A stretch of 46,651 nt of DNA, from sequence record ON470608.1; one strand, given 5' to 3'. Origin of the DNA: Escherichia phage vB_EcoS-733R5. Below the pieces are notes generated by a model. The model searched no databases and was not told the origin of the DNA. It worked only from the letters and a program-made list of their open reading frames with translations. The position numbers and the translations under genes were made by a program. Position 1 is the stretch's first letter. Each line of letters starts with the position of its first letter. Below, in pieces: positions 1 to 42,768 of the stretch.

Positions 1-933
1 ATGGACAACGACAAAATTGATCAACACAGCGACGAAATTGAAGTTGAGAGCGAAGAAAAAGAGCGCGGCAAAAAAATAGAAATAGATGAAGACCGACTCC
101 CCTCCCGGGCGATGGCAATTCATGAGCATATCCGCCAGGATGGTGAAAAAGAGCTGGAACGCGACGCAATGGCGCTACTGTGGTCAGCCATTGCGGCGGG
201 TCTGTCGATGGGCGCTTCGTTACTGGCAAAAGGGATATTTCAAGTCGAACTGGAAGGTGTGCCGGGCAGCTTCTTGCTGGAGAATCTCGGTTATACCTTT
301 GGTTTTATTATCGTCATTATGGCCCGCCAGCAATTATTTACCGAAAATACCGTGACTGCGGTACTACCCGTCATGCAAAAACCGACAATGAGCAACGTCG
401 GCTTACTTATGCGATTATGGGGCGTCGTGCTGCTGGGTAATATTCTCGGGACAGGTATTGCTGCATGGGCATTTGAATATATGCCTATCTTCAATGAAGA
501 AACTCGCGATGCATTTGTCAAAATCGGCATGGATGTGATGAAGAACACCCCCAGCGAGATGTTTGCCAACGCGATCATTTCCGGCTGGCTGATCGCCACT
601 ATGGTTTGGATGTTTCCTGCTGCGGGTGCGGCAAAGATTGTGGTGATTATATTGATGACCTGGCTTATTGCACTGGGTGACACCACCCACATCGTTGTCG
701 GTTCTGTTGAAATCCTCTATCTGGTGTTTAACGGCACGCTGCACTGGAGCGATTTCATCTGGCCCTTCGCACTACCTACTTTAGCCGGGAACATCTGCGG
801 CGGCACCTTTATCTTCGCGTTAATGAGTCATGCACAGATTCGTAACGACATGAGCAACAAGCGTAAAGCAGAAGCACGCCAAAAAGCAGAACGTGCGGAA
901 AACATTAAGAAAAATGATAAAAACCCAGCATAA
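1..933 (+). CDS. yfdC: Formate/nitrite transporter (FNT) family inner-membrane protein YfdC
   Basis: 310-aa ORF with multiple hydrophobic helices; recognised from memory as the E. coli YfdC protein that neighbours argW. ATG falls at window position 1. Confidence 0.75.
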   Translation: MDNDKIDQHSDEIEVESEEKERGKKIEIDEDRLPSRAMAIHEHIRQDGEKELERDAMALLWSAIAAGLSMGASLLAKGIFQVELEGVPGSFLLENLGYTFGFIIVIMARQQLFTENTVTAVLPVMQKPTMSNVGLLMRLWGVVLLGNILGTGIAAWAFEYMPIFNEETRDAFVKIGMDVMKNTPSEMFANAIISGWLIATMVWMFPAAGAAKIVVIILMTWLIALGDTTHIVVGSVEILYLVFNGTLHWSDFIWPFALPTLAGNICGGTFIFALMSHAQIRNDMSNKRKAEARQKAERAENIKKNDKNPA

Positions 934-1008
934 ATGGCGAGGGTTTAAGCAATCGAGCGGCAGCGTACTTACCCCGCAGTCCATTAGCGGGTATACTCAT
1001 GCCGCATT

Positions 1009-1035
1009 GTCCTCTTAGTTAAATGGATATAACGA
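1009..1035. repeat. 27-bp direct repeat of the tRNA-Arg 5' end (one mismatch); candidate attL core
   Basis: gtcctcttagttaaatggatataacga here versus gtccccttagttaaatggatataacga at 42243..42269; it lies about 75 bp after the yfdC stop and marks the transition into AT-rich accessory DNA. Confidence 0.7.
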
Positions 1036-1346
1036 CTACAAATATAACCAACTGTTTTAAATGATAAAAAAAATTTCAATAAACTCCACCTGTACACATA
1101 ACTGCACACACTTTTGTTAGGTTGTATCCATATATGTATGGGTATTAAAAGTTGTCGGCATTTCGACTTTTTGAGACTGTGGGCGGTACTCTTTCTATCA
1201 TAAATACTCTATAGTTTGTTCAATGATGTTTCATGTTGTTCGATGGATGCCTACATGCTGTCTGTTACATCTTCCTTGGTTCGAAGATGTTGCTTAAAAA
1301 ATCAGTTCAAGTATGATTCTCATCCATAAAAGGGAAGAACTTCAAA

Positions 1347-1643
1347 ATGACAAACTCAGACAAAAATGTTAAAGCCGCACCGTTTGGCGTAACGAAAATC
1401 GAAAATGCTGAACATTTTCATGACGTTTTCGCAGACATAACTGGTGTTACTGAGTACAACATTGATGGCACTGTTTACGTAAACTTATCTTTCTTAAGTC
1501 ATCGCGTTTTTCCATACGCAGATGAGAGCGGTCATCCGTCAAGTTCAAGAGTCGACATCAAACGAGTTGCATCAGTAACTCTTACGCGTGACAAAGCAAT
1601 AGCCTTACGTAACGCACTTAATGCTAACCTATCAGATGAATAG
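1347..1643 (+). CDS. Hypothetical protein, first gene of an AT-rich three-gene cargo operon
   Basis: 98-aa ORF with a Shine-Dalgarno-like aaggga upstream of the ATG; AT-rich context; no family recognised. Confidence 0.5.
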   Translation: MTNSDKNVKAAPFGVTKIENAEHFHDVFADITGVTEYNIDGTVYVNLSFLSHRVFPYADESGHPSSSRVDIKRVASVTLTRDKAIALRNALNANLSDE

Positions 1644-1663
1644 TAAAATATGGGGCTAAAATA

Positions 1664-1909
1664 ATGACTATCAACACTATGTTTATGGTCTCTACATTTT
1701 CAACACCTACTGGCATAAGCACTGTCAACGCTGTTGATTTCGTAGCCTCTGAAGTCGCAAATGCGACACGAACTAACTTTACTAGCAGAGATACCTTTGC
1801 TGACTATCCCATGGATGAGATCTGTGCTTCTCTTGCTTCTGCTGACATCCTCATCCCGTCTCAACTCGCTACCGCTGATGAGATTGATGCATGGCTAATG
1901 GATCTGTAG
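1664..1909 (+). CDS. Hypothetical protein, second gene of the cargo operon
   Basis: 81-aa ORF starting 21 bp after the first gene; acidic C-terminus; no family recognised. Confidence 0.45.
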   Translation: MTINTMFMVSTFSTPTGISTVNAVDFVASEVANATRTNFTSRDTFADYPMDEICASLASADILIPSQLATADEIDAWLMDL

Positions 1910-2277
1910 ACGTTTCCGTCACTGCACACTTTAGAGCCAGATACAGGCAATTTCCTCCTAAAAGTAGGCAGAGGATTAGTACCTTTATCAACGAAGTCAT
2001 GAAAAACGGGTTTGCAAATCTTGAAGGTAGAAATAAGTTTTCCGATGATGTAAGCCCGGATGATCCTGATTTCAGAGCAAAAGTGCAGTTTGTAAACGAG
2101 CATTGCCTTTGGCACTACCATGTCGGCATTCATGATTATGAAATGGATAAGCCTTATGGTGATAGAACATCAATGTTCGTTTTACATTATAAAAGACATA
2201 ATCCTGCGAGCATTAGTGTGAACCACTTATCGCCGCACCCTCCATTCACGTTGCCTACGTTGGAAATGTTTACTTAA
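1891..2277 (+). CDS. Hypothetical protein, third gene of the cargo operon (start uncertain)
   Basis: 128-aa ORF overlapping the preceding gene by 19 nt, suggesting translational coupling; His-rich stretch WHYHVGIHDYE; ends immediately before a strong terminator. Confidence 0.45.
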   Translation: MANGSVDVSVTAHFRARYRQFPPKSRQRISTFINEVMKNGFANLEGRNKFSDDVSPDDPDFRAKVQFVNEHCLWHYHVGIHDYEMDKPYGDRTSMFVLHYKRHNPASISVNHLSPHPPFTLPTLEMFT

Positions 2278-2307
2278 AAAACCAGCCATTTATGGCTGGT
2301 TTTTTTA
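2276..2307. terminator. Bidirectional rho-independent terminator
   Basis: aaaaaaccagccatttatggctggttttttt: a GC stem flanked by an A-run and a T-run, between the convergent + operon and the - strand gene ending at 2342. Confidence 0.7.
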
Positions 2308-2341
2308 TATTGATTAGGTACTTATACAATTAACTATTGTT

Positions 2342-2668
2342 TTATATAACCGGGCATCCATCATCAGTAGGCCATGCGCGATTGATGTCGAATGTCACCA
2401 CCCCGACAACTGTAACATCATCCAAAGCCTCTCCTTCCAGAGTCTCACCGTCTCTTGTAATAAATGCCCGGCCCATAATTTTTGCAAAATCTGTGCCTCC
2501 GCCGTATTGAATTAAAACGGTATCTCCTTGCTTTGGTTTACCGGAGACATCGACTACGGTGTAACCAGTTTCTGTTTGCACGATCCGAGTATTAGGGCCG
2601 GTACCGCAGAGTTTATCGACGGTAAGCCGTCCTTCCACAAAGTCTGCTGCTGGCGATGGAAAGCCCAC
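2342..2668 (-). CDS. UmuD'-like / peptidase S24-like domain protein, apparently lacking the canonical Ser-Lys dyad
   Basis: N-terminus GFPSPAADFVEGRLTVDKL closely matches the UmuD segment GFPSPAADYVEQRIDLNQL that follows the autocleavage site; the C-terminal VVGVV resembles the S24 beta-core; the SGxSM catalytic motif is not evident. GTG start 2 nt after the upstream stop. Confidence 0.5.
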   Translation of the reverse strand: MGFPSPAADFVEGRLTVDKLCGTGPNTRIVQTETGYTVVDVSGKPKQGDTVLIQYGGGTDFAKIMGRAFITRDGETLEGEALDDVTVVGVVTFDINRAWPTDDGCPVI

Positions 2669-2670
2669 GA

Positions 2671-2910
2671 TTACAGCCCTCCATTTGGGTTGTAAAGCTG
2701 GAACGTGCGATCGTCACCTTCCTGCGTTGAGACGTCGCGGAATGTTGTCACGTAGCCCTCTATCCACTGATTAGCCTGCCGTGGCGACCAGTGCCAGTTA
2801 TATCTCTCCAGTTCCTGCAGAAATCGCCTGGTGGTGAGGATGCGCTTTCCGTTAGGCAGGATATCTATTGCCTTACGGCAGGCCGTCTCGATTTCGTATA
2901 AACGCGGCAT
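2671..2910 (-). CDS. Hypothetical small protein paired upstream of the UmuD'-like gene
   Basis: 79 aa from the ATG preceded by gggggaag; stop is 2 nt before the downstream GTG start; no family recognised. Confidence 0.4.
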   Translation of the reverse strand: MPRLYEIETACRKAIDILPNGKRILTTRRFLQELERYNWHWSPRQANQWIEGYVTTFRDVSTQEGDDRTFQLYNPNGGL

Positions 2911-3048
2911 ACTTCCCCCTGTCAAACTTACTGTATATAAACACAGTAAATGCATGTGTGCAGCAGATCAATATTGGCAGTGGCTATCAATGATCGGCGC
3001 TGACGTAACGCATTGATGCCTCAATTCGACTGGCAACATTGAGCAGGG

Positions 3049-3095
3049 AAATATTTATAAATCGTCTTCACCCCCCTCATATTACATCGGCTACC
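3049..3095. repeat. Copy A of an approximately 45-bp repeat encoding a serine-recombinase C-terminus
   Basis: The minus strand encodes ...GVKTIYKYFP...; direct repeat of the sequences at 3258..3304 and 3838..3882. Confidence 0.6.
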
Positions 3096-3257
3096 GACCC
3101 AATGTTTTAACTGCTCAGACCAGAAATATCTGGAAGCTTTAGGCATCTTCTTGGAAGATAGATGAGCGCAAAGACGCACACAGCAATGATGTTATGTAGT
3201 ATTTTCCCCTTGAGTGTGCCTGCTCAAGGGGATTTTTTATCGCCGTATTGTACTGGC

Positions 3258-3304
3258 AAATATTTGTAAATCGTCTTCACTCCCACGCCTGTCACATAGG
3301 CCAC
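3258..3304. repeat. Copy B of the recombinase 3'-end repeat
   Basis: aaatatttgtaaatcgtcttcactcccacgcctgtcacataggccac; the minus strand encodes ...VTGVGVKTIYKYLPV... Confidence 0.6.
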
Positions 3305-3322
3305 ACGCTACTGGACAGGCGC

Positions 3323-3745
3323 TTAGTCCGGTATGTTTCTCGCGCTACTACTGCTTACGTTAACGTCTGGTAATGCTCTAGCGGCGCGACGTAAAGCGGC
3401 GTTGAAAGCAATTATAGTGACCGGCCGGCGATGGTACTTCACACGGTTAGAATGACTCTGAAATAAATAAACATCTTCTGGATAGCGTTCTCTTCTACGA
3501 GCAATCATCGCCTCCACTGGAGGGGTTGATTTAACACGTAGCTCCTTCAGGTGACCCTGTTTTCGTATCAGTATCAAGTCACCATCAATATCATCATATC
3601 GAATACTCAGCAGCCTTCCAGCGCTTAAACCCGTGTGAAAAATTAACGCCCACAAGTCAGCCCATGTATCTGAGATGGAAACAAGATTGCTGTTAATAGT
3701 TAAAAATTGCTCAAAACTTATTGTTTTCTTACCGTTCACGAACAA
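3323..3745 (-). pseudogene. Tyrosine-recombinase-like fragment, apparently truncated before box II
   Basis: 140-aa ORF containing HTGLSAGRLLSIRYDDID (box-I-like); it terminates before any HxxR...Y region and runs directly into repeat copy B. Confidence 0.4.
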
Positions 3746-3822
3746 CCCAAACTGTTTTCAAAGCTGAATGAATTGATTAAGCCAAACGTAACATATCAGG
3801 AAAAGTAGTGAAATCTTTGTCT

Positions 3823-4054
3823 TCAAGTCGCCGGGAGGTACTTGTAGATTGTTTTCACGTCCACGCCTGTCACATCGGCTACCTGCTGCCGGGTTGCGCC
3901 CGTACCCAACATCCTGCGGCATCGCTCCACAACCTCAGTGGTCATTACCCGGCGCCGTCCACCTACTCTCCCCTGCTCCCTCGCTGCGGCTAAACCGGCG
4001 CGGGTACGCTCGACAATCAGCTCTCGTTCCATCTCTGCCATTATCCACAGTCGG
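3823..4054 (-). pseudogene. Serine recombinase (Hin/Gin/Pin-type DNA invertase) C-terminal fragment
   Basis: AEMERELIVERTRAGLAAAREQGRVGGRRR...QQVADVTGVDVKTIYKYL matches the invertase catalytic-domain end plus HTH; the N-terminal ~120 aa are absent; the 3' end is repeat copy C (3838..3882). Confidence 0.7.
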
Positions 4055-4229
4055 TTTTCGCTGTGATCCAGCGCGCTATCGACGAAATACGATTTTTTCC
4101 CGTGCGATCCAGGAATTCGCCTCCACCTCGGATAAGTGGATGCCGCACCGGCGCAGCGCTGACACAAAATCCTTTGTGTGCAGGTATTGAAAACCTTTGG
4201 AGTTGCGCAATACCGACTCGCGGAATGCC

Positions 4230-6183
4230 TGATTGATATCTGACTGACAGTGCATGATCTGCCCTCTGATAAACGTCGCGGTAGGGATACCCGTTACCGG
4301 GTACCCCCCGCACAGATCCCGGCGTGCGCTATTCACGCACCGGGCTCCTGCCTTGGGTGTCTGGCGGTGAACCGCTCCACAGGCCATGGATGCAGAACCC
4401 GAACCTTCGGCAGCCATACGGCTGCCAGTCTGTTTGCTTTCGTCCATGTCGTATCATCCTGCTGGCTCCTGCGCCTCAGCGCCCGTCGCCAGAGGTCTGT
4501 TACGTATATCCTGAACTTCCGCATCATGGGATAGTTGCCCGGGACTGAGTGGTAGTTCAGGTATCCCTGAACCACTCTCCTGAGCCATTTTCCCTGTTCG
4601 GGGATTGAGTAATGCCAGCGCTTTCGTAGTCCGTCCTTGATCGCTTTCAGTGTCGCCGTCATCCTGTCCCGGCGTGTCTTTCGTATCAGCATGAACCTGC
4701 CACTACGATCTTTCCCACTGATATGCGTGAACCCGAGGAAGTTGAACGTTTCTGGTTTACCTTTTCCCCTGCTGGCGCGGTTTTCGGCTGCGAAGCGGCC
4801 GAACTCCGTCAGTCGGGTTTTCTTCGGATGTACCGTGAGTCCGAACTCCTTCAGTCTGCGCTGCATGGCTATACGAAAGCATTGAGCGTCGATTCGCTTG
4901 TCGAACCCGATGACTATGTCATCTGCGTATCTGACCATGACCACATTGCCTGTGGCATGGCGGCGTCGCCACTGATGCGCCCACAGATCGAAGACATAGT
5001 GGAGGTAGATGTTTGCCAGCAGCGGCGAGATAACCGCACCCTGTGGGGTGCCTTCCTCCGATGCCCGCCATTCTCCTTCCTCTGAGGTCCCGGCTGTGAG
5101 CCACTTTCGTATGAGCCTGATTACCCTCTGGTCGCCGATTCTGTGTTCTATGAACCTGATTAGCCATTCATGGCTTACCTTGTCGAAGAACTGACTGATA
5201 TCGGCATCCAGTACCCAGTTTACATTGGTCCGAACCAGCCCTGTGGCCAGTGCGTCCAGCGCATTGTGCTGGTTTCGCCCGGGTCTGAACCCGTATGAAA
5301 ACCCCATAAAGTCATTTTCGTAGACTGCATTCAGGATCTTAACCAGCGCATACTGGACGATTTTGTCCTCCAGTGAGGCGATGCCGAGCGGGCGCTGTTT
5401 TCCATCCGCTTTCGGGATGTAGTGCCGCCTGCCGGGCTGAGCCCTGTAACTACCCTGATGAAGCCTCCGGTGCAGATCTGCTATGTTGACCTTCAGGTTT
5501 TCGGCGTAGTCCTTCCACCTGACACCATCAACTCCGGCAGCCGCTTTCCTGCTCAGGGAGAGGAATGCGTTCTCCAGTGCCTCTGCTGTCAGGAGGTGGA
5601 ACAATGCGGTAAACCGTTCTTTCTTCCGCTGCTTCGCAGCTTCCCGCACGCGTGACAGCCTCTGTGACATACTTTCCCGGCTCTGCGTCCGGCGCATGTG
5701 TGGCTGTTCCGCGTTTCCCTTGGCCCCGCTCCTTCGCTCCACTGACTCCGCTCCTTGCGGATTGTTCGCCAGATTCGCAGCTACTATGAGCGAGTCCGAC
5801 TTCTCCTCTCCGTACATCACCGGCTTCGGCTCCTCGCCTTCCCGGTGCGGGCCATCTCCGGCACTGGCAGATGGTCAGAGGGGAGATCTCCCGGTTCCCG
5901 CGTAAAGATCGTATTGACATGCCAGGGTCTCAGACCCCGCCGGGTCCATATGGCACTCGCAGTAACGCACCCTATGATGTTGCCTTCCGTAAACAGTACA
6001 ACGTCGGCACCCGGGAATTTAATATACATTTCGTGGCTCAATGGCTGGCCTGTCAACACCCCTGTCAACGCTTCGCCCCATACCTCACGGTATACAACGC
6101 ATGACTCGGGGACCCTGTGGATTGCTGGTCCTTCAATGGTCGGGGACTTTCACCCCTTGATCTTTACCGGTCTCCCGGCGCAC
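4230..6183 (-). mobile_element. Group II intron (3' boundary approximate)
   Basis: The minus strand begins GTGCGCCGGGAGACCGG (5' consensus GUGCG) at 6183, contains the RT/maturase ORF, and has a domain-V-like hairpin with a GTAA tetraloop at about 4278..4311. Confidence 0.7.
4333..5820 (-). CDS. Group II intron-encoded reverse transcriptase/maturase (LtrA-like)
   Basis: 495 aa with RT motifs (FxGxxxGxxxSPLLANIYL, YADD active site) followed by a maturase X-like domain. Confidence 0.85.
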   Translation of the reverse strand: MMYGEEKSDSLIVAANLANNPQGAESVERRSGAKGNAEQPHMRRTQSRESMSQRLSRVREAAKQRKKERFTALFHLLTAEALENAFLSLSRKAAAGVDGVRWKDYAENLKVNIADLHRRLHQGSYRAQPGRRHYIPKADGKQRPLGIASLEDKIVQYALVKILNAVYENDFMGFSYGFRPGRNQHNALDALATGLVRTNVNWVLDADISQFFDKVSHEWLIRFIEHRIGDQRVIRLIRKWLTAGTSEEGEWRASEEGTPQGAVISPLLANIYLHYVFDLWAHQWRRRHATGNVVMVRYADDIVIGFDKRIDAQCFRIAMQRRLKEFGLTVHPKKTRLTEFGRFAAENRASRGKGKPETFNFLGFTHISGKDRSGRFMLIRKTRRDRMTATLKAIKDGLRKRWHYSIPEQGKWLRRVVQGYLNYHSVPGNYPMMRKFRIYVTDLWRRALRRRSQQDDTTWTKANRLAAVWLPKVRVLHPWPVERFTARHPRQEPGA

Positions 6184-6252: not shown

Positions 6253-9200
6253 CTACTGGTTGTTATCCAGCCAGTATTGCATCCATGCGTCAGCCATAAT
6301 ATTGCAGGCAAAGGTATATTCTGAGAATGTCGTTGAAATTTCTGAGAAGAAATCCAGATCCCACAGCTTAATCTGCCCATTGGTATTTGACCCACCGTAC
6401 TCATCAAAAGCATCCAGCAGGCGCTCAGCTGCTTCGAGGCAGGAGTTATCACCAGAATGCAGAAGAGGGTACAGCAGGAATCCAACCGTTGTCGGCTGCC
6501 CGCGGCGCGACTCCGCGATGCAGTAGTCCACTTCCTTCAGCCCACCGTAACCCGATACAGCATTTAACGCATAGGTTTCCATGTTTAGGACCGATGCCCG
6601 TCCCGCTGCTTTGCATCCGATCAGGTAGTTGTTCCAGGCATACACCTGATAATGCAGATAGCGACGCTTCGGAACATTCTCAGTGACGTTATCGGTAATA
6701 ATGTTTTTCACCCCGGCAAAATACGTACTGGATGAAAACTGACCGTCAACCATCGTCATCGCCGTAGCGTAGCTCCCGGAGGTATCCAGACCAGCAGCAT
6801 ACGCCATCGCCCAGGAACGGAACGCAGCAGCATAGAAGTTGCTGTTTGCCGAACCGACCGTACCGAATGCTGAATAGCAGTCTGCTGCCAGATTGCCGAT
6901 GGCCACTTTCAGTTCGGTTTGTTTTGCCGTGTCACCATTCAGCACCGCGAGCTTATAGAGCCACCACAGCGGAGGGAGTACCAGGCGGGAGGCAAACTGC
7001 AGCGACTTGGAATCAGCTGCGTTTCCGAGGTGAATGTTGCCGATACTTCCGTACCACGTTGTCGCCCACGCGGAGAACTTCGCATACACCGTCTCAAACG
7101 AGCCGATTTTCAGATGCAGCATGCGCACAATATCGCCGGCAATGGTGTTGAACATCCCGTTGCCGTTGTCGGTACTTGTCGCATCCAGCGTATTCCAGGC
7201 CGCAATACCGCTAATGACATCCCCCAGACGGCTGGCCAGTTTAGCCTGGCGGACGCGTGGGTACACAGATGACAGTGAAGCGAACCCAACAACAGGATTA
7301 AGTTCGACGTTAGACAATGCCGTAGTATCAGAAATGCTCTCGTTAAGGTTCATAGTGAATGAGACAGGCCACGCCCAACCCGCAGGAGCACCAAGGGTCG
7401 TTGTGGTCGATCCATATGTTCCTGCCGTCCACCCACCATCGAAACGTACATAGGATGTGGTTACTGTCAGCCCGGCGACTGGCGGCCTGTTACCAACAGT
7501 AGACGCTTCAGCAGAATCACGAATAGTATCGCCGCCTGCGTTACGGATAGACACAGAACGCAATACTGAATTGTCAGTCCAGATCGCGTTGTACTCGTTA
7601 CGATATGCTTTGGTCGCCGTTGAGTTAAGCTGAATGCGCGTCATACATGCAAACAGGGCATTAGCTGCCAGCGCAGATTGCAGGCGAGCCACAGCATCAA
7701 TCTGTACATACCCGTTTTTGAATACCCGAGTACGGTAGGTATGTTTAATCAACCGCGCCGCAATGGCCACGTTACCGGTAAGAGCGCCATTGTAGAAGAT
7801 AGTTTCTATTTCGGTGAATACCGGACCATCACTGATAATTTTGTACGCGTAGTCCGTATAACCCGCCGCGACCGTCGACCAGGCGGTGCCGGTTACCGTC
7901 GCATACAACTGCTGACAGATATTGGTATAGGTGATGCTGTCCCGCGTCAGTTTGTACGGCAGCCAGCCTACCACGCTGTCAAAACGCACCTGAGTCCCGT
8001 CATCGGCGGTTACCAGCAGACTGGTTGCGGTTTCCCGGTTCGTTCTGGTGTAGGAGGACGCATCCTGCGGTGTCGGGTAGGCCTTCAGCAGGTATTTTTT
8101 GGACGAGTTAGCCGGGATATTATCGAGGATAAGCAAATCCCCGCTGCGCAGGGAGCCATCAGCCCAGTAACTCAGGTTACGCCCCCGGCGCGGGTTAAAG
8201 TCTCCCTCTCCCGCCCACTGGGAGGGATATACCGTTCCGTCCGCATCCGTCACCACAATACAGCGGTCAGTCGGTACCTCACCCGCCTGGAATTTGCATT
8301 TTATCGCTACAGGGCGGCTTCCTGTTGCGTAATCAGTTGTGTTTTTAACCACAACCTCATAGCGGCGATACGTCGTTAAATCGTCAGTTGTCATTTTGGG
8401 CCCGTTGAACGTACCGGTTAATGTTACGTTTCCGTCAGTCGTCAGGGTGACGGCACCGGCGGCGAGTTTAAAAAGGTTGCAGAAGGTTTTTGTTGCGGAT
8501 ACAGATGTGACCTGACTGAACACGTAGCCTGCCAGCTTATCCACCACATACTGAATAATCCCCGCAGTGGTCAGCGCATAGCCTGCTGCCGTGACGTCCG
8601 CATTCAGGACAGCCAGAATCAGCATGCCCGTTGAGGCGTTGTAGGTGATGCCCCGTGTGGTTCCCCCGGCAATCGTGGTGGGAGTGAAGGCGTCAAACAC
8701 TCCTGCGCGGTCACGAATGATGCGGGTGGTGTCAGATGGCAGAGCACCGGGCAGCGTGACCGGGATGTTCATCGTCGTGCGACCGGTGGTCGTGTTGATA
8801 CCCAGGCCGTTGATACCCGCTGGCTGCAGCACAAAATCGACATACGGCGTTGTCAGGACGGCGCCGGCGGTAGATTCGCCTTCCAGCAGAGCTATGCTCT
8901 GTGAAGTACCAAGTCCGTCGGTCATCGTCATGACCAGGCGGCGCACGTTCGTGGAAAGGGACAGCTTATTCAGCGTGAAAATACTGCCGCCGCTCATCGT
9001 GGCACTGTAAGCCACCTGTGACCCATAGTTACCTACGGAGCCGATATTGGTCTGGTAGTCCCGGAGTTCGAGATTCAGCGCCCGCAACCTGTCAGCGGCA
9101 TACGCCTGAGCATTTGCAGCAATATTCACGGCATTGGCGTTTGACTGCATTTTCCCAACATCAAGAGACAGTTTTTTTGTCACCTGAATAGTCGCCGTAC

Positions 9201-30220: not shown

Positions 30221-30252
30221 AATTGTTAACTATTAGTGTACTAAGGAATGTT

Positions 30253-31194
30253 ATGACGAGTGCAGTTGCGGTAAAAAAACCCAAAAAACTACGAATTGGC
30301 TTCTATACGAGTAGTTCTGGAACCATTCGAAGCAACTCTGTTGCCAAAGCTGCGATCGATAGCCTTTACAGCACTTGCGTGAATGTAACTAACAATCATT
30401 TCGATACTACATATAAAAATAAAAAGTTGAAAATTGCGTTTATAAATAAAGACACTAATGCCAAATATTATTTTGGCTATATGTCTTGCTCAAGAGAAGA
30501 GTACCTCCTTCCTTATATTGGCGATGAGCACTGGAAAGAACACAACATCCCATTGGATGATAAAAAATACATTGTCGAGCGTACTTATTTTTTATATTAC
30601 TATGAAAGCGACATTTTGATCCTTACGCAAAACCATCTTGGTCCAAAGGAATCTGATCTCGCTTATCTTCTTTATAGCCAAAGTGGACAGCCTGGAAACA
30701 ATTTTTCTTTCCAAGCCATTTGGAAGAAAGAAAGTATTAAAGAACTTCTCGAAACAGGAAGTACACTTAGAAGCTGCGAACTTATCCTAGCTGCTCCACG
30801 AAACTTCGATGTGACTAATTATCAGTTAGATAGTTCTTTTTCGAAAGAACTATTAAATATGATGATTGGTCTTGGTGGTACGCATTTAAAAATCAATCTT
30901 AGAGGGAGAGCTTCTGGAAGAGTTAAAGTTAAAGGCTACCTTTCGGATGTGGTAAAAGATGGTATTAAAGAATTATTAGAAAAAATACCGAATATTGTCA
31001 AAAAAGCAGCAGTAACACAGCCAAAAAACACTGCTGAGCAGAGTCTGCTTGAACAGGTTCTCATCTCGGAAAAAAATATACATACCGTAAACGGCTATGG
31101 CACAGATAGCGATGTGCTCCAAGCGATGATTTCTGCTAAAATTGATAATAATGGTTACCTTATGCAGTACGACATAAGCATTAAGAAGGTATAG
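30253..31194 (+). CDS. Cargo protein A: soluble ~313-aa protein (possible RexA-like sensor)
   Basis: AT-rich gene antisense to the late operon; aggaa SD; N-terminal GFYTSSSG; Lys-rich; no confident family assignment. Confidence 0.55.
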   Translation: MTSAVAVKKPKKLRIGFYTSSSGTIRSNSVAKAAIDSLYSTCVNVTNNHFDTTYKNKKLKIAFINKDTNAKYYFGYMSCSREEYLLPYIGDEHWKEHNIPLDDKKYIVERTYFLYYYESDILILTQNHLGPKESDLAYLLYSQSGQPGNNFSFQAIWKKESIKELLETGSTLRSCELILAAPRNFDVTNYQLDSSFSKELLNMMIGLGGTHLKINLRGRASGRVKVKGYLSDVVKDGIKELLEKIPNIVKKAAVTQPKNTAEQSLLEQVLISEKNIHTVNGYGTDSDVLQAMISAKIDNNGYLMQYDISIKKV

Positions 31195-31197
31195 TTT

Positions 31198-31641
31198 ATG
31201 TTATTGAGATATATAGCAAATATAATAGGAAGCATTTTTTTGACATACTTGTTATTGAAGTATGTTCCTTTAATGCAACATAATGACATTCTCACATCAG
31301 CAGGGGTCATCTCTACTGTTTCAGGAATCTTGTTTGGTTTTGTGCTTGCTACTATTTCGATTTTCAGTGCAGCTAGCGCCAATTCAAATGGGGTCTTGAA
31401 AGCTTTAAAAAACAACAACATACTTCAAGGTATAGTAACTAATTTATTAGCTGCTGGAGCGACACTAATTACAGCATGCTTAATTTCACTTATTGCCATG
31501 TTTGCCAGCGAGCAATTAATTTACAATGACAAAAAAATAGAGTTCATATTCATCATTCAATCATTATCACTATTGATAGTAGCAATTATAATGTTTGGGT
31601 TTACTTGGCGTAAAATTAATTGGATTTTACCATATATTTAA
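31198..31641 (+). CDS. Cargo protein B: ~147-aa membrane protein with about four TM helices (possible RexB-like effector)
   Basis: Starts 3 nt after gene A with an aagaagg SD; four hydrophobic segments; followed by a terminator. Confidence 0.55.
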   Translation: MLLRYIANIIGSIFLTYLLLKYVPLMQHNDILTSAGVISTVSGILFGFVLATISIFSAASANSNGVLKALKNNNILQGIVTNLLAAGATLITACLISLIAMFASEQLIYNDKKIEFIFIIQSLSLLIVAIIMFGFTWRKINWILPYI

Positions 31642-39996: not shown

Positions 39997-40857
39997 CTAT
40001 TCTTCCATCCCACCTTCATTTATTAAGCCCTGAGACAACCCATAGGTTGCTAACAGTTCTTTTATACTACCCTTTGTTTTTTGAAAATCCAAAGCAAGCC
40101 TTTCTGCAGACTTTGTATCATTGATCATATTGTTTTCACCAATCAACTCACTCCTAAGCTTATTTAATACATCGGTATAAAAGTAATTGTGCCAATTATA
40201 AATATAAATCTCACCAAATTTATCAAAACCTTCCTTTGAAGCAGGAATCACCTCAATTATTTTTTTGCTTATCTCTCCTTCATTTAGAATGTTGTGTTTT
40301 CTAGCTAAGGGGATTGACAAAAAACGAAGAGATATTAGAGCAAACAAAGATATTGATTCATATATTTCAAAAGATTTAAGTGTGCTTTCACTCAAATATA
40401 ATTTCATAGTATCCTTATCAAAACCATTATACTCTTCTAACTTTTCATTTATTTTTAATGGCCTTGTGATAGCTTCCATAAAGTCATTAAGTCTTTGGTC
40501 ATCTCCCATTTTCATTATCTCTTTGACATTAAGCATCTGCATATATTGCACCGCCATAGATAAACCAATTAGGTATTTACGAATCTTAATTAAATTCTCA
40601 GCTGATTCGAATCTTTTTGACTGGAGAACAGAATCCCTGCTTGTTCTCACATTGGAAAGATAATTCCTTATTTGCTCCAGTTCTTTCTCGCCCTCTCTCA
40701 CTTCAGATTTAAATTTTTCAAGTTTTGTATCAAACTTGTGTTCAATAGATTTTGTAAGAAATTTTCCAATACTATCTCTAAATAAGTAGCCAACTCCAGA
40801 GATAAATGCTGCTGATGTAACGATACTAACAAGCCATTTTAATAATTCGCTATTCAT
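39997..40857 (-). CDS. AT-rich cargo protein with an N-terminal hydrophobic helix
   Basis: 286-aa ORF between the excisionase-like gene and the integrase; Lys/Glu/Ile-rich; no family recognised. Confidence 0.5.
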   Translation of the reverse strand: MNSELLKWLVSIVTSAAFISGVGYLFRDSIGKFLTKSIEHKFDTKLEKFKSEVREGEKELEQIRNYLSNVRTSRDSVLQSKRFESAENLIKIRKYLIGLSMAVQYMQMLNVKEIMKMGDDQRLNDFMEAITRPLKINEKLEEYNGFDKDTMKLYLSESTLKSFEIYESISLFALISLRFLSIPLARKHNILNEGEISKKIIEVIPASKEGFDKFGEIYIYNWHNYFYTDVLNKLRSELIGENNMINDTKSAERLALDFQKTKGSIKELLATYGLSQGLINEGGMEE

Positions 40858-40887: not shown

Positions 40888-42056
40888 TTATCTTAACTTA
40901 TTTACTTGCCAAAATATTTTGTCCGCGTACTTTTCGTATGCTTCCTTCTGCTCCACCAGCCAATCGTGTTTGTTATAAACCGCCATCACTCCCCCTAACT
41001 CATGCCCCAGCATCTTTTCAGTGACGTGAGGCATAACCCCTTCCCCTGATAAATTCGTCACCAGCGAACGCCTGAAGTCATGTGTTCGCCACTCTGGTAT
41101 ATCAATTTTATCCCTTAATTTTTTCATATAGAGATTTGCTGACGAGCGATCTATAGGCTTGTCGAGTTCCTGGCCGGGAAACAGAACATCATTTCCAGCA
41201 TTGAGGAGCCTTTCAACAAAAGGTTTCACCTGGTCAAACACCGGGCGACGGATTACGTTACCCATCTTTGAATGTTCTGCTGGAGTCGTCCAGATAAGAT
41301 CATCCATATTGAACTCACTGGCAGTAGCAAGGCGCAGCTCTGATAGCCTGGCTCCCCAAAGCAAAAGCAGCTGATGAAGCACCTTGTTGGAGGTAACGAT
41401 CTTGTTGTTCTCCAGCGCCAGCCAGATTTTAGCCAACTCGGTATACGTGAGAACACGGCTACCCACATCAGGTTTTTTTCCAATGGTCTTAACACTTAGC
41501 TTCAGGACTTCGCACGATGGGATCAACTGGCGACTGATACACCAGTTCATGACGGAACGTAGCTGCAGAAGAAGCACCCTGGCCTTTTTGCTGTTCTTCT
41601 TTTCCTGCTTATCAAAGAAACGCACCCATGCCGAAACAGGAATGTTTACTACCGGAGCGTCCGGGAATTCTGTGTACATCGTGTTGTACACAACTGACTT
41701 GTACAGCGTCTGAGTGTTCGGCTTCAGCGTTTCAACATACTTGCCCCACCACTGATCCAGGCACTCTTTGAGAGTCAGCTCGCCATCTTCTTTGGCAAAA
41801 TAATTTTTCGGGTTTAGCCCCTTGAGGTACAATTCGCGCATCTCACCGACGACAACGCGCGCCTCCTTGAGAGACATAGCGGGATAGCGGCCAATGGAGA
41901 GGCGAACGGGCTTACCGTTCCAGCGATAACGAAACTGGAATGTGATCGTGCCTGTGGGAGTTATGCGTACACTCAGCCCGTCACCATCTGTGACCTCAGC
42001 TGCGCCGCTGTATGGCTTAGCATTGATGCTACGGAGTTTGGTATCACTAAGGGCCA
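40888..42056 (-). CDS. Tyrosine integrase (P4-like family), likely GTG start
   Basis: N-terminal ALSDTKLR...PYSGAAEVTDGDGLSVRITP and C-terminal HDFRRS...VMAVYNKH are integrase hallmarks; there is no ATG near the conserved N-terminus, so the GTG at 42056 is proposed. Confidence 0.75.
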
Positions 42057-42242
42057 CGGCTCTGTATCCTGTACACACTGAAATTCTGCATTCTGTACTC
42101 AATGTGTACGCAATGGCAAGTGAACGAAGTGATTTTCTAAGCGAATCGATGCGAACGGAAAGGAAATAAAAGGAATGAAATGCTTGATGGTACGGGGAAT
42201 GATAGGATAACATGCAACACAAGCTGAACGCTTAAAAATCAG

Positions 42243-42317
42243 TAAGTTCTATGTCCCCTTAGTTAAATGGATATAACGAGCCCCTCCTAAGGGCTAATTG
42301 CAGGTTCGATTCCTGCA
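42243..42317 (+). tRNA. argW: tRNA-Arg (anticodon CCU)
   Basis: 75-nt cloverleaf-compatible sequence with a GTCCCCT/AGGGGAC acceptor stem, CCU in the anticodon loop, a GTTCGATTC T-loop and a 3' CCA. Confidence 0.9.
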
Positions 42318-42768
42318 GGGGACACCAGATACCCTTCAAACGAAATCTACCTTCACCCCGTAAAAGATGGGTTTGGCAGCACACTTGCCTTATATCTACT
42401 CATTTTTACTGCAACAGGTTGAAATCTCAGCACTGTCAGAAAGCGCTGATGACTAAACAGCCCTGGGCCGGGCGATGTAACCATCACACAGAATCCTGAT
42501 AGCGAAATATGGCGTGACTCGATACTTCACTCCGCAATGCATTCCTTGATGAATTCGCAGGACCGTGATACACGGGACAGGTCACTGAATGACGACAATG
42601 TCCTGGAAATCAGCGAACCGCGCATCTGAAGTACATTTGAGCGACTGTACCAGAACATGAATGAGGCGTTTGGATTAGGCGATTATTAGCAGGGCTAAGC
42701 ATTTTACTATTATTATTTTCCGGTTGAGGGATATAGAGCTATCGACAACAACCGGAAAAAGTTTACGT

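Follow-up and report, generated by a model that had tools for sequence, protein, structure and literature searches.

The DNA analyzed here, 46,651 nucleotides of Escherichia phage vB_EcoS-733R5 (ON470608.1; hereafter the window), contains a segment of the E. coli chromosome that runs from yfdC (1-933) to argW, the gene for tRNA-Arg(CCT) (42253-42327), and that encloses a prophage of about 41 kb. Our subject is a trio of small genes at the yfdC side of this prophage, named g1, g2 and g3 (Table 1), whose products are labeled hypothetical proteins by the annotation pipeline PGAP. We argue that this operon is probably a three-component type II toxin-antitoxin (TA) module, carried by temperate phages as cargo that is expressed in the lysogen. 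The att repeat that precedes the trio matches the 5' part of the tRNA-Arg(CCT) gene, and the trio is therefore the first item inside the prophage. Beyond it, at 3323-5820, lie a group II intron and the remains of integrase and invertase genes. An earlier note on this DNA had described three small, packed genes of 98, 81 and 128 aa with a 19-nt overlap, in a cargo position between an attL repeat and recombinase debris; the coordinates of the open reading frames (ORFs), of attL and of the integrase and invertase fragments bear out this description.

The GC content of the region is 35% at 1001-1500 and 41-43% at 1501-2500, as compared to about 50-60% across most of the prophage. The ratios of nonsynonymous to synonymous substitution rates (dN/dS), calculated against orthologs in other genomes, were 0.06-0.16 for g1, 0.12-0.22 for g2 and 0.06 for g3, which argues that all three are real genes under purifying selection. 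The overlap between g2 and g3 (1891-1909) is kept in every orthologous trio examined. The ATG at 1891 was taken as the correct start of g3, because the N-terminal 36 residues are conserved throughout its family and are part of the predicted fold, in which they form strand 1 and helices 1 and 2. It should be noted that GenBank record ON470622.1 ("Escherichia phage vB_EcoS-716R3, partial genome") is the window in reverse complement, including the host genes yfdC and argW; it calls g3 36 codons too short (1999-2277), and it labels g2 'NACHT, LRR and PYD domains-containing protein 12-like', which is not supported by any of our results.

Table 1. The trio and the features that surround it in the window
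Feature	Position	Strand	Description
attL	1008-1035	+	28 nt, repeated in direct orientation at 42252-42279 (96% identity); duplicate of the 5' part of argW
Upstream block TCTATAGTTTGTTCA	1208-1222	+	Holds a TATAGT -10-like hexamer; largely kept among aligned trio loci
Promoter-like TTGCTT-16 nt-TATGAT	1290-1317	+	About 30 nt before the g1 start codon; inferred, under the threshold of the consensus scan
g1	1347-1643	+	98 aa; candidate accessory component specific to the enterobacterial trio
g2	1664-1909	+	81 aa, isoelectric point (pI) 4.05; most likely the antitoxin, putative toxin-binding module at residues 47-81
g3	1891-2277	+	128 aa; predicted RelE/ParE-fold toxin, uncurated family
Intrinsic terminator, bidirectional	2276-2305		13-bp stem, 4-nt loop, A-run before and T-run after

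The earlier note recognized no family among the three proteins. At the sequence level this holds, and the identity of g3 becomes visible only through its fold and its gene neighborhood. Single-sequence scans of Pfam, NCBIfam and PADLOC gave no match for g3, and its sole match among the PHROGs was PHROG 5954 (function unknown; E 9e-13). None of the 87 family members tested matched the RelE/ParE-superfamily models of Pfam, nor did any of the 87 match NCBIfam, and searches of the PDB with sequence profiles of all three families returned nothing meaningful. For g1 and g2, scans of Pfam, NCBIfam, PADLOC and PHROGs, both with the single sequences and across the families, were negative as well. Homologs of g3 form 24 clusters at 90% identity, and a profile search extended the family to 163 representatives at 50% identity. 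The AlphaFold2 (AF2) model of g3, made with the family alignment as input (predicted local distance difference test score, pLDDT, 78.5; predicted template modeling score, pTM, 0.71), has the element order strand, helix, helix, short strand, inserted helix, three strands. The predicted structure thus has the N-terminal strand, the two helices and the three-stranded antiparallel sheet that define the RelE/ParE superfamily fold. On the basis of this model, g3 is most likely a RelE/ParE-fold toxin whose family is absent from the curated databases that we checked.

Conservation within the family points to the kind of toxin. Among 29-87 diverse members, residues S51, H75, H77, G79, S94, H99, H116, P118 and P122 are invariant and K49 is nearly so; the family motifs are G-L-x-G-R-N-K-x-S, L-W-H-Y-H-I-G, T-S-x-x-V-L-H-Y and H-P-P-F-x-L-P. 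The catalytic sites of RelE, YoeB and YafQ are located in the loop after helix 2, at alternate positions of the sheet and at the end of the last strand, and the conserved polar residues of g3 fall at these places. The invariant residues S51, H75, H77, H99 and H116, together with K49, are predicted to occupy positions that are topologically suitable for RelE-type catalysis. The His-rich stretch WHYHVGIHDYE, for which the earlier note had suggested a metal-binding or catalytic role, is the first core beta-strand of the model and carries the invariant H75 and H77; this placement is easier to reconcile with catalysis than with generic metal binding. In charge the g3 protein ranges from neutral to basic, and it has a high histidine content. 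When the g3 profile was compared by hhalign with E. coli YoeB, YafQ and RelE, the alignments were not significant. Judging from the model, g3 would most likely act as an RNase of the RelE/YoeB/YafQ type.

Relatives of g3 were taken from GTDB genomes as a set of 64 loci, originating from Moraxella, Pasteurellaceae, Neisseria, Psychrobacter, Acinetobacter, Pseudidiomarina, Marinobacter and others. In several Moraxella genomes they are present in three to five copies, some of them decayed. At nearly all 64 loci a small ORF lies upstream of the toxin-relative gene and overlaps or abuts it, which is the layout of type II TA systems: small co-oriented genes in which the antitoxin gene is upstream of, and coupled to, the toxin gene, as is also seen in the 19-nt overlap between g2 and g3. 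The N-termini of these partner proteins vary: on visual inspection some look like a ribbon-helix-helix (RHH) domain (MILDLPP...QGI...), an LP..VQEQ..NGKV type is seen in others, and 6 of 38 partners contain the antitoxin domain SocA_Panacea (Pfam PF13274; best E 2.6e-22), which is also present in the partner encoded by an Enterobacter phage-plasmid. All partners, on the other hand, share a C-terminal module that approximates F-N-F-D-L-E-R-M-K-x-A-V-E-x-x-F-V-x-V-P-x-F-x-x-x-E-E-F-x-x-W-L.

This module is also found in g2. Its C-terminus (47-DYPMDEICASLASADILIPSQLATADEIDAWLMDL-81) aligned with the module of the partners from two-gene loci with an hhalign probability of 93% (E 2.6e-7), and comparison of the g2 family with four partner subgroups one by one gave E-values from 2.7e-5 to 9e-4, whereas g1, which served as the control, stayed above 0.18. 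A bridge between the two groups is provided by the middle gene of the operon in a Yersinia phage (y2), which matched the hidden Markov model of the module with E 1.8e-10 and the g2 profile with E 1.6e-4, each time in a three-sequence database. Proteins of the g2 family are very acidic (pI 4.05-4.6). Pfam gave no significant match to g2 (the best was DUF3479, E 0.14) and NCBIfam no match. The N-terminal half of g2 contains no recognized DNA-binding or dimerization domain, RHH, Phd, helix-turn-helix (HTH) and Panacea domains all being absent, and it shows no relationship to the corresponding domains of the partner antitoxins; hence, the DNA-binding, autoregulating antitoxin that characterizes type II systems is not apparent in g2. 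Because its C-terminus aligns with the partner module even though a DNA-binding domain is not recognizable, g2 is most likely, on these alignments, the antitoxin, and its residues 47-81 form a putative toxin-binding module. The lack of the domain that type II antitoxins use for autoregulation is the reason why we propose a system of three components.

The third component would be g1. Its family is narrow (11 clusters, restricted to Enterobacterales, plus two IMG/VR contigs). The plasmid search gave no match to g1, and g1 was never found without g2 and g3: both were present in 8 of 8 distinct contexts, and the matches in phages were of the trio type only. In the AF2 model of g1 (pLDDT 73, pTM 0.49), three long strands run antiparallel and a helix forms the C-terminus. 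Members of the family are acidic (pI 4.8-6.7), Pfam gave neither a match nor an HTH domain, and the viral AlphaFold structure library contains one match, an unnamed protein of 93 aa. In most orthologs g1 overlaps g2 by 1-4 nt. In the window (1622-1663) and its cluster at 99% identity, g1 stops seven codons before the end of the orthologs of 104-107 aa, leaving a gap of 20 nt between g1 and g2. We rejected the possibility that g1 is a detached antitoxin head, since comparison with the N-terminal domains of the fused antitoxins gave hhalign E-values above 0.18; library scans and comparison likewise led us to reject a SecB-like chaperone or a tail-fiber chaperone. In Yersinia phage vB_YenM_30.14 the first gene of the operon (3310-3630 of the locus) encodes an unrelated CxxC...CxxC protein of 106 aa that looks zinc-ribbon-like by eye, which shows that the first position of the operon is variable. 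That g1 substitutes for the missing N-terminal domain of the antitoxin is a hypothesis only.

In E. coli the locus is present in 10 of 5,426 complete genomes, and one diverged copy (76.6% nucleotide identity) is located at another prophage site in E. coli 98232 (NZ_CP173446). In this strain the g3 ortholog (8580-8966 of the locus) is intact and was left unannotated by PGAP, and an IS3 element is inserted between the trio and a UmuD'-like gene pair. In the assembly collection, 1,324 indexed blocks contain the 98-aa form of g1, and its 8 distinct contexts all consist of the yfdC/argW site followed by g2 and g3; the genomes concerned are probably Klebsiella pneumoniae, the name that one source gives to the g1 protein. 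We saw the trio at the argW/yfdC site of E. coli, Raoultella, probable Klebsiella and a metagenomic host; E. coli 98232 and Enterobacter hormaechei carry it at a pphA-side site. Different temperate phages and integration sites harbor the trio, which travels between them as one unit. The trio is often convergent with the UmuD'-like gene pair or with true umuDC. A five-gene unit that includes the UmuD'-like pair was rejected, because copies of the trio in Pantoea and Yersinia lack that pair.

A cI-like repressor gene encoding HTH_3 and Peptidase_S24 domains is the immediate upstream neighbor of the module in five independent elements: Yersinia phage vB_YenM_30.14, the Enterobacter phage-plasmid, and prophages of Pantoea, Moraxella equi and M. 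lacunata. This repeated adjacency suggests a role in the fitness of the lysogen, be it prophage stabilization or superinfection exclusion. Other relatives of g3 adjoin rep genes on Acinetobacter plasmids of 4.6 and 6 kb. Multiple copies, decayed copies and locations on plasmids and prophages are typical of TA modules.

The signals that surround the trio are consistent with a single operon that ends behind g3, where a single terminator is located. Its folding (minimum free energy -17.9 kcal/mol, z-score -4.0), together with its stem and its A- and T-runs, confirms the strong bidirectional terminator described in the earlier note; it is common to the trio and the convergent UmuD'-like gene. An Rfam scan of 900-3200 gave no match at the gathering score, and the weak matches all lay on this terminator. 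The AT-richness of the upstream region, described in the earlier note, is real. Although the consensus scan yielded no sigma-70 promoter before g1, the promoter-like element of Table 1 is largely kept across six enterobacterial trio loci (alignment A8). The more distant block TCTATAGTTTGTTCA could, by its sequence, be a distal promoter or an operator. A direct repeat, TTGTTCAATG / TTGTTCGATG, is located at 1216-1245, and the search for an operator in the upstream region found just short, weakly conserved repeats.

Taken together, the analysis shows how the genes are arranged, that they are under purifying selection, that a toxin fold is predicted for g3, that toxins of this family are consistently paired with antitoxin-type partners, and that the setting is one of prophages or plasmids. 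A TA or tripartite module had been among the suggestions of the earlier note, and it is supported by the RelE/ParE fold of g3 and by the g2 module that the partners of the toxin family have in common. The remote-homology and structure analysis of the single proteins that the note proposed as a check yielded this fold, the module match and the strands and helix of g1. Homology that would have spoken for another function, i.e., to a tail-fiber chaperone such as Caudo_TAP or to a structural protein, was not found for g1-g3 in Pfam, PHROGs, NCBIfam or PADLOC.

Based on this, the module would work as follows. The g3 protein would be an RNase, with its conserved His, Lys and Ser residues on the beta-sheet face taking part in cleavage; both its toxicity and its RNA target are presumed. 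The g2 protein, translationally coupled to g3 through the overlap of their genes, would wrap its C-terminal 35 or so residues around the toxin and neutralize it. The g1 protein would probably provide the function that is missing from g2; as a dimer it could associate with the N-terminal half of g2, which is conserved and beta-rich, and either serve autoregulation through operator binding or stabilize the antitoxin. Such a role would parallel that of PaaR2 in paaR2-paaA2-parE2 or of omega in omega-epsilon-zeta. Loss of the prophage or degradation of the antitoxin would then set the toxin free and stop growth, by which the prophage would be stabilized and a superinfecting phage could be aborted.

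Three other explanations deserve consideration. Within the RelE/ParE fold, the toxin could poison DNA gyrase like ParE instead of cleaving RNA like RelE; the fold is common to both, the conserved polar residues of g3 have, to our knowledge, no counterpart in ParE proteins, and we consider this alternative unlikely. Another explanation concerns g1, which could be unrelated, co-transcribed cargo with a function of its own next to an ordinary two-gene TA pair formed by g2 and g3. Such a pair would account for our failure to find a third conserved gene in the two-gene relatives, for the unrelated first gene of the Yersinia phage, for the lack of relationship between g1 and the N-terminal domains of all partner antitoxins, and for the intergenic gap that the early stop of g1 leaves in the window. 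However, it leaves unexplained that g1 is never seen apart from g2 and g3, that the two reading frames overlap in most orthologs and that the trio travels whole between phages and integration sites. Moreover, g2 lacks the N-terminal domain that is present in all two-gene antitoxins, so that a function is left vacant. An independent g1 therefore seems improbable to us.

The remaining explanation is that the trio is not an addiction module, and that it is dedicated either to anti-phage abortive infection or to anti-defense, as cargo with a RelE-fold protein that is not toxic to its own host. The slot directly downstream of cI, which the module occupies in five elements, is that of lambda rexAB, the exclusion genes expressed in the lysogen. 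RelE-like domains are also present in non-TA proteins such as Cami1 and Txp40. In addition, many TA systems function in phage defense (PMC10440598). On the other hand, the PADLOC models match none of g1-g3, and the rep-adjacent relatives on plasmids of 4.6-6 kb, the multiple chromosomal copies and the Panacea partners are typical of autonomous TA systems. We regard this explanation as quite unlikely; it bears on the biological role more than on the mechanism, because defense and addiction can coexist.

A bolder version of the three-component TA interpretation, which we consider rather doubtful, makes three claims jointly: g1 represents a new class of third component, the trio is an abortive-infection switch and not plain addiction, and the toxin together with the module constitutes an undescribed plug-and-play TA family. 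According to this version, g1 could form a small dimer of beta-sheet type, bind the beta-rich N-terminal half of the 'headless' antitoxin and so control the release of the toxin, and it might sense a phage or SOS cue. The module (F-D-L-E-R-M...W-L) would be fused to RHH-like, LP..VQEQ-type or Panacea heads, or be split over two proteins.

How does the proposed module compare with known TA systems? The nearest counterparts as regards fold and conserved residues are the mRNases RelE, YoeB and YafQ. Yet g3 is about 35 residues longer than RelE-type toxins and contains an inserted helix (61-71) and a loop (80-95), g2 lacks the RHH, Phd or HTH domain of the antitoxins of these systems, and the trio has an extra first gene. 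None of the Pfam and NCBIfam models of RelBE, YefM-YoeB, DinJ-YafQ and HigBA matches the trio. In its working, as judged from the genes and models of the trio, the closest system is paaR2-paaA2-parE2, a three-component TA system of the cryptic prophage CP-933P of E. coli O157:H7 in which paaA2-parE2 lies directly downstream of a cI-like repressor (PMC8630535). The two have in common an accessory gene, a headless antitoxin, a RelE/ParE-fold toxin and a prophage location. They differ in that g1 is not an HTH- or cI-like regulator as expected of a PaaR-type protein (there is no Pfam match, the model is beta-rich and the family is acidic), in that g3 belongs to another sequence family and has RNase-like conserved residues, and in that the trio of the window is situated at the prophage end and not in the immunity region.

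A likeness to PanAT systems, whose antitoxins have a Panacea/DUF4065 domain, exists as well: a SocA_Panacea protein with a C-terminal module of the g2 type precedes toxin relatives in six GTDB loci and in the Enterobacter phage-plasmid. In contrast, g2 itself has no Panacea domain, and it is the C-terminal module alone that they have in common. A survey of Panacea systems holds 88 distinct toxin-domain combinations, many of them without known domains (PMC8832971), and for this reason the toxin cluster of g3 may already be listed there as Panacea-linked. A SecB-like third component, as in the toxin-antitoxin-chaperone (TAC) system HigB1-HigA1-SecB-like chaperone of M. tuberculosis, is not found in the trio. 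Thus, the trio sits outside every curated sequence family, and it brings together a RelE/ParE-fold toxin from an uncurated family, an antitoxin module that is portable, and a first component that is novel.

These results give a probable function to three "hypothetical" genes that are rare in E. coli yet apparently widespread in the yfdC/argW prophages of probable Klebsiella genomes. They also point to a family of RelE/ParE-fold toxins, comprising at least 163 sequence clusters, which is missed by the current Pfam, NCBIfam and PADLOC models, and to a conserved, portable module, predicted to bind the toxin, that is carried by several different antitoxin heads. The split, three-gene form lends itself naturally to asking which functions, toxin binding aside, a type II antitoxin requires. 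Although they introduce no new principle, these observations may be of use to research on TA systems and phage defense.

Several other features of the prophage were observed. At 3323-5820, on the minus strand, a group II intron reverse transcriptase/maturase of 495 aa (4333-5820) is located amid integrase-like (3323-3745) and Pin-type invertase (3823-4032) fragments, and a direct repeat is present in three diverged copies at 3038-3075, 3247-3284 and 3825-3862. An orphan gene for a protein of 286 aa at 39997-40857 (minus strand; 31-35% GC), for which neither Pfam nor PADLOC gave a match, adjoins the integrase gene (40888-42222). At 30223-31641, on the plus strand, AT-rich cargo (about 36% GC) comprises two genes, one encoding a DUF6731 protein of 323 aa (E 8e-11) and the next a hydrophobic protein of 147 aa that appears membrane-spanning by eye; neither protein matches PADLOC.

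The UmuD'-like gene that converges on the trio (2342-2668, minus strand) encodes a protein of 108 aa that matched PHROG 3469, 'UmuD-like', with E 4e-46. It starts with (M/V)GFPSPAADF, which we take to be the N-terminus of cleaved UmuD'. The match to the NCBIfam model HumD is confined to residues 1-28, and on visual inspection the protein seems to lack the Ser/Lys active-site region. It is paired with a PHROG 3893 protein of 79 aa (2671-2910, minus strand). In Enterobacter hormaechei, the same slot is occupied by a full Peptidase_S24 gene and an IMS (UmuC-like) polymerase gene. The 108-aa protein may be a phage-encoded, pre-activated mimic of UmuD'.
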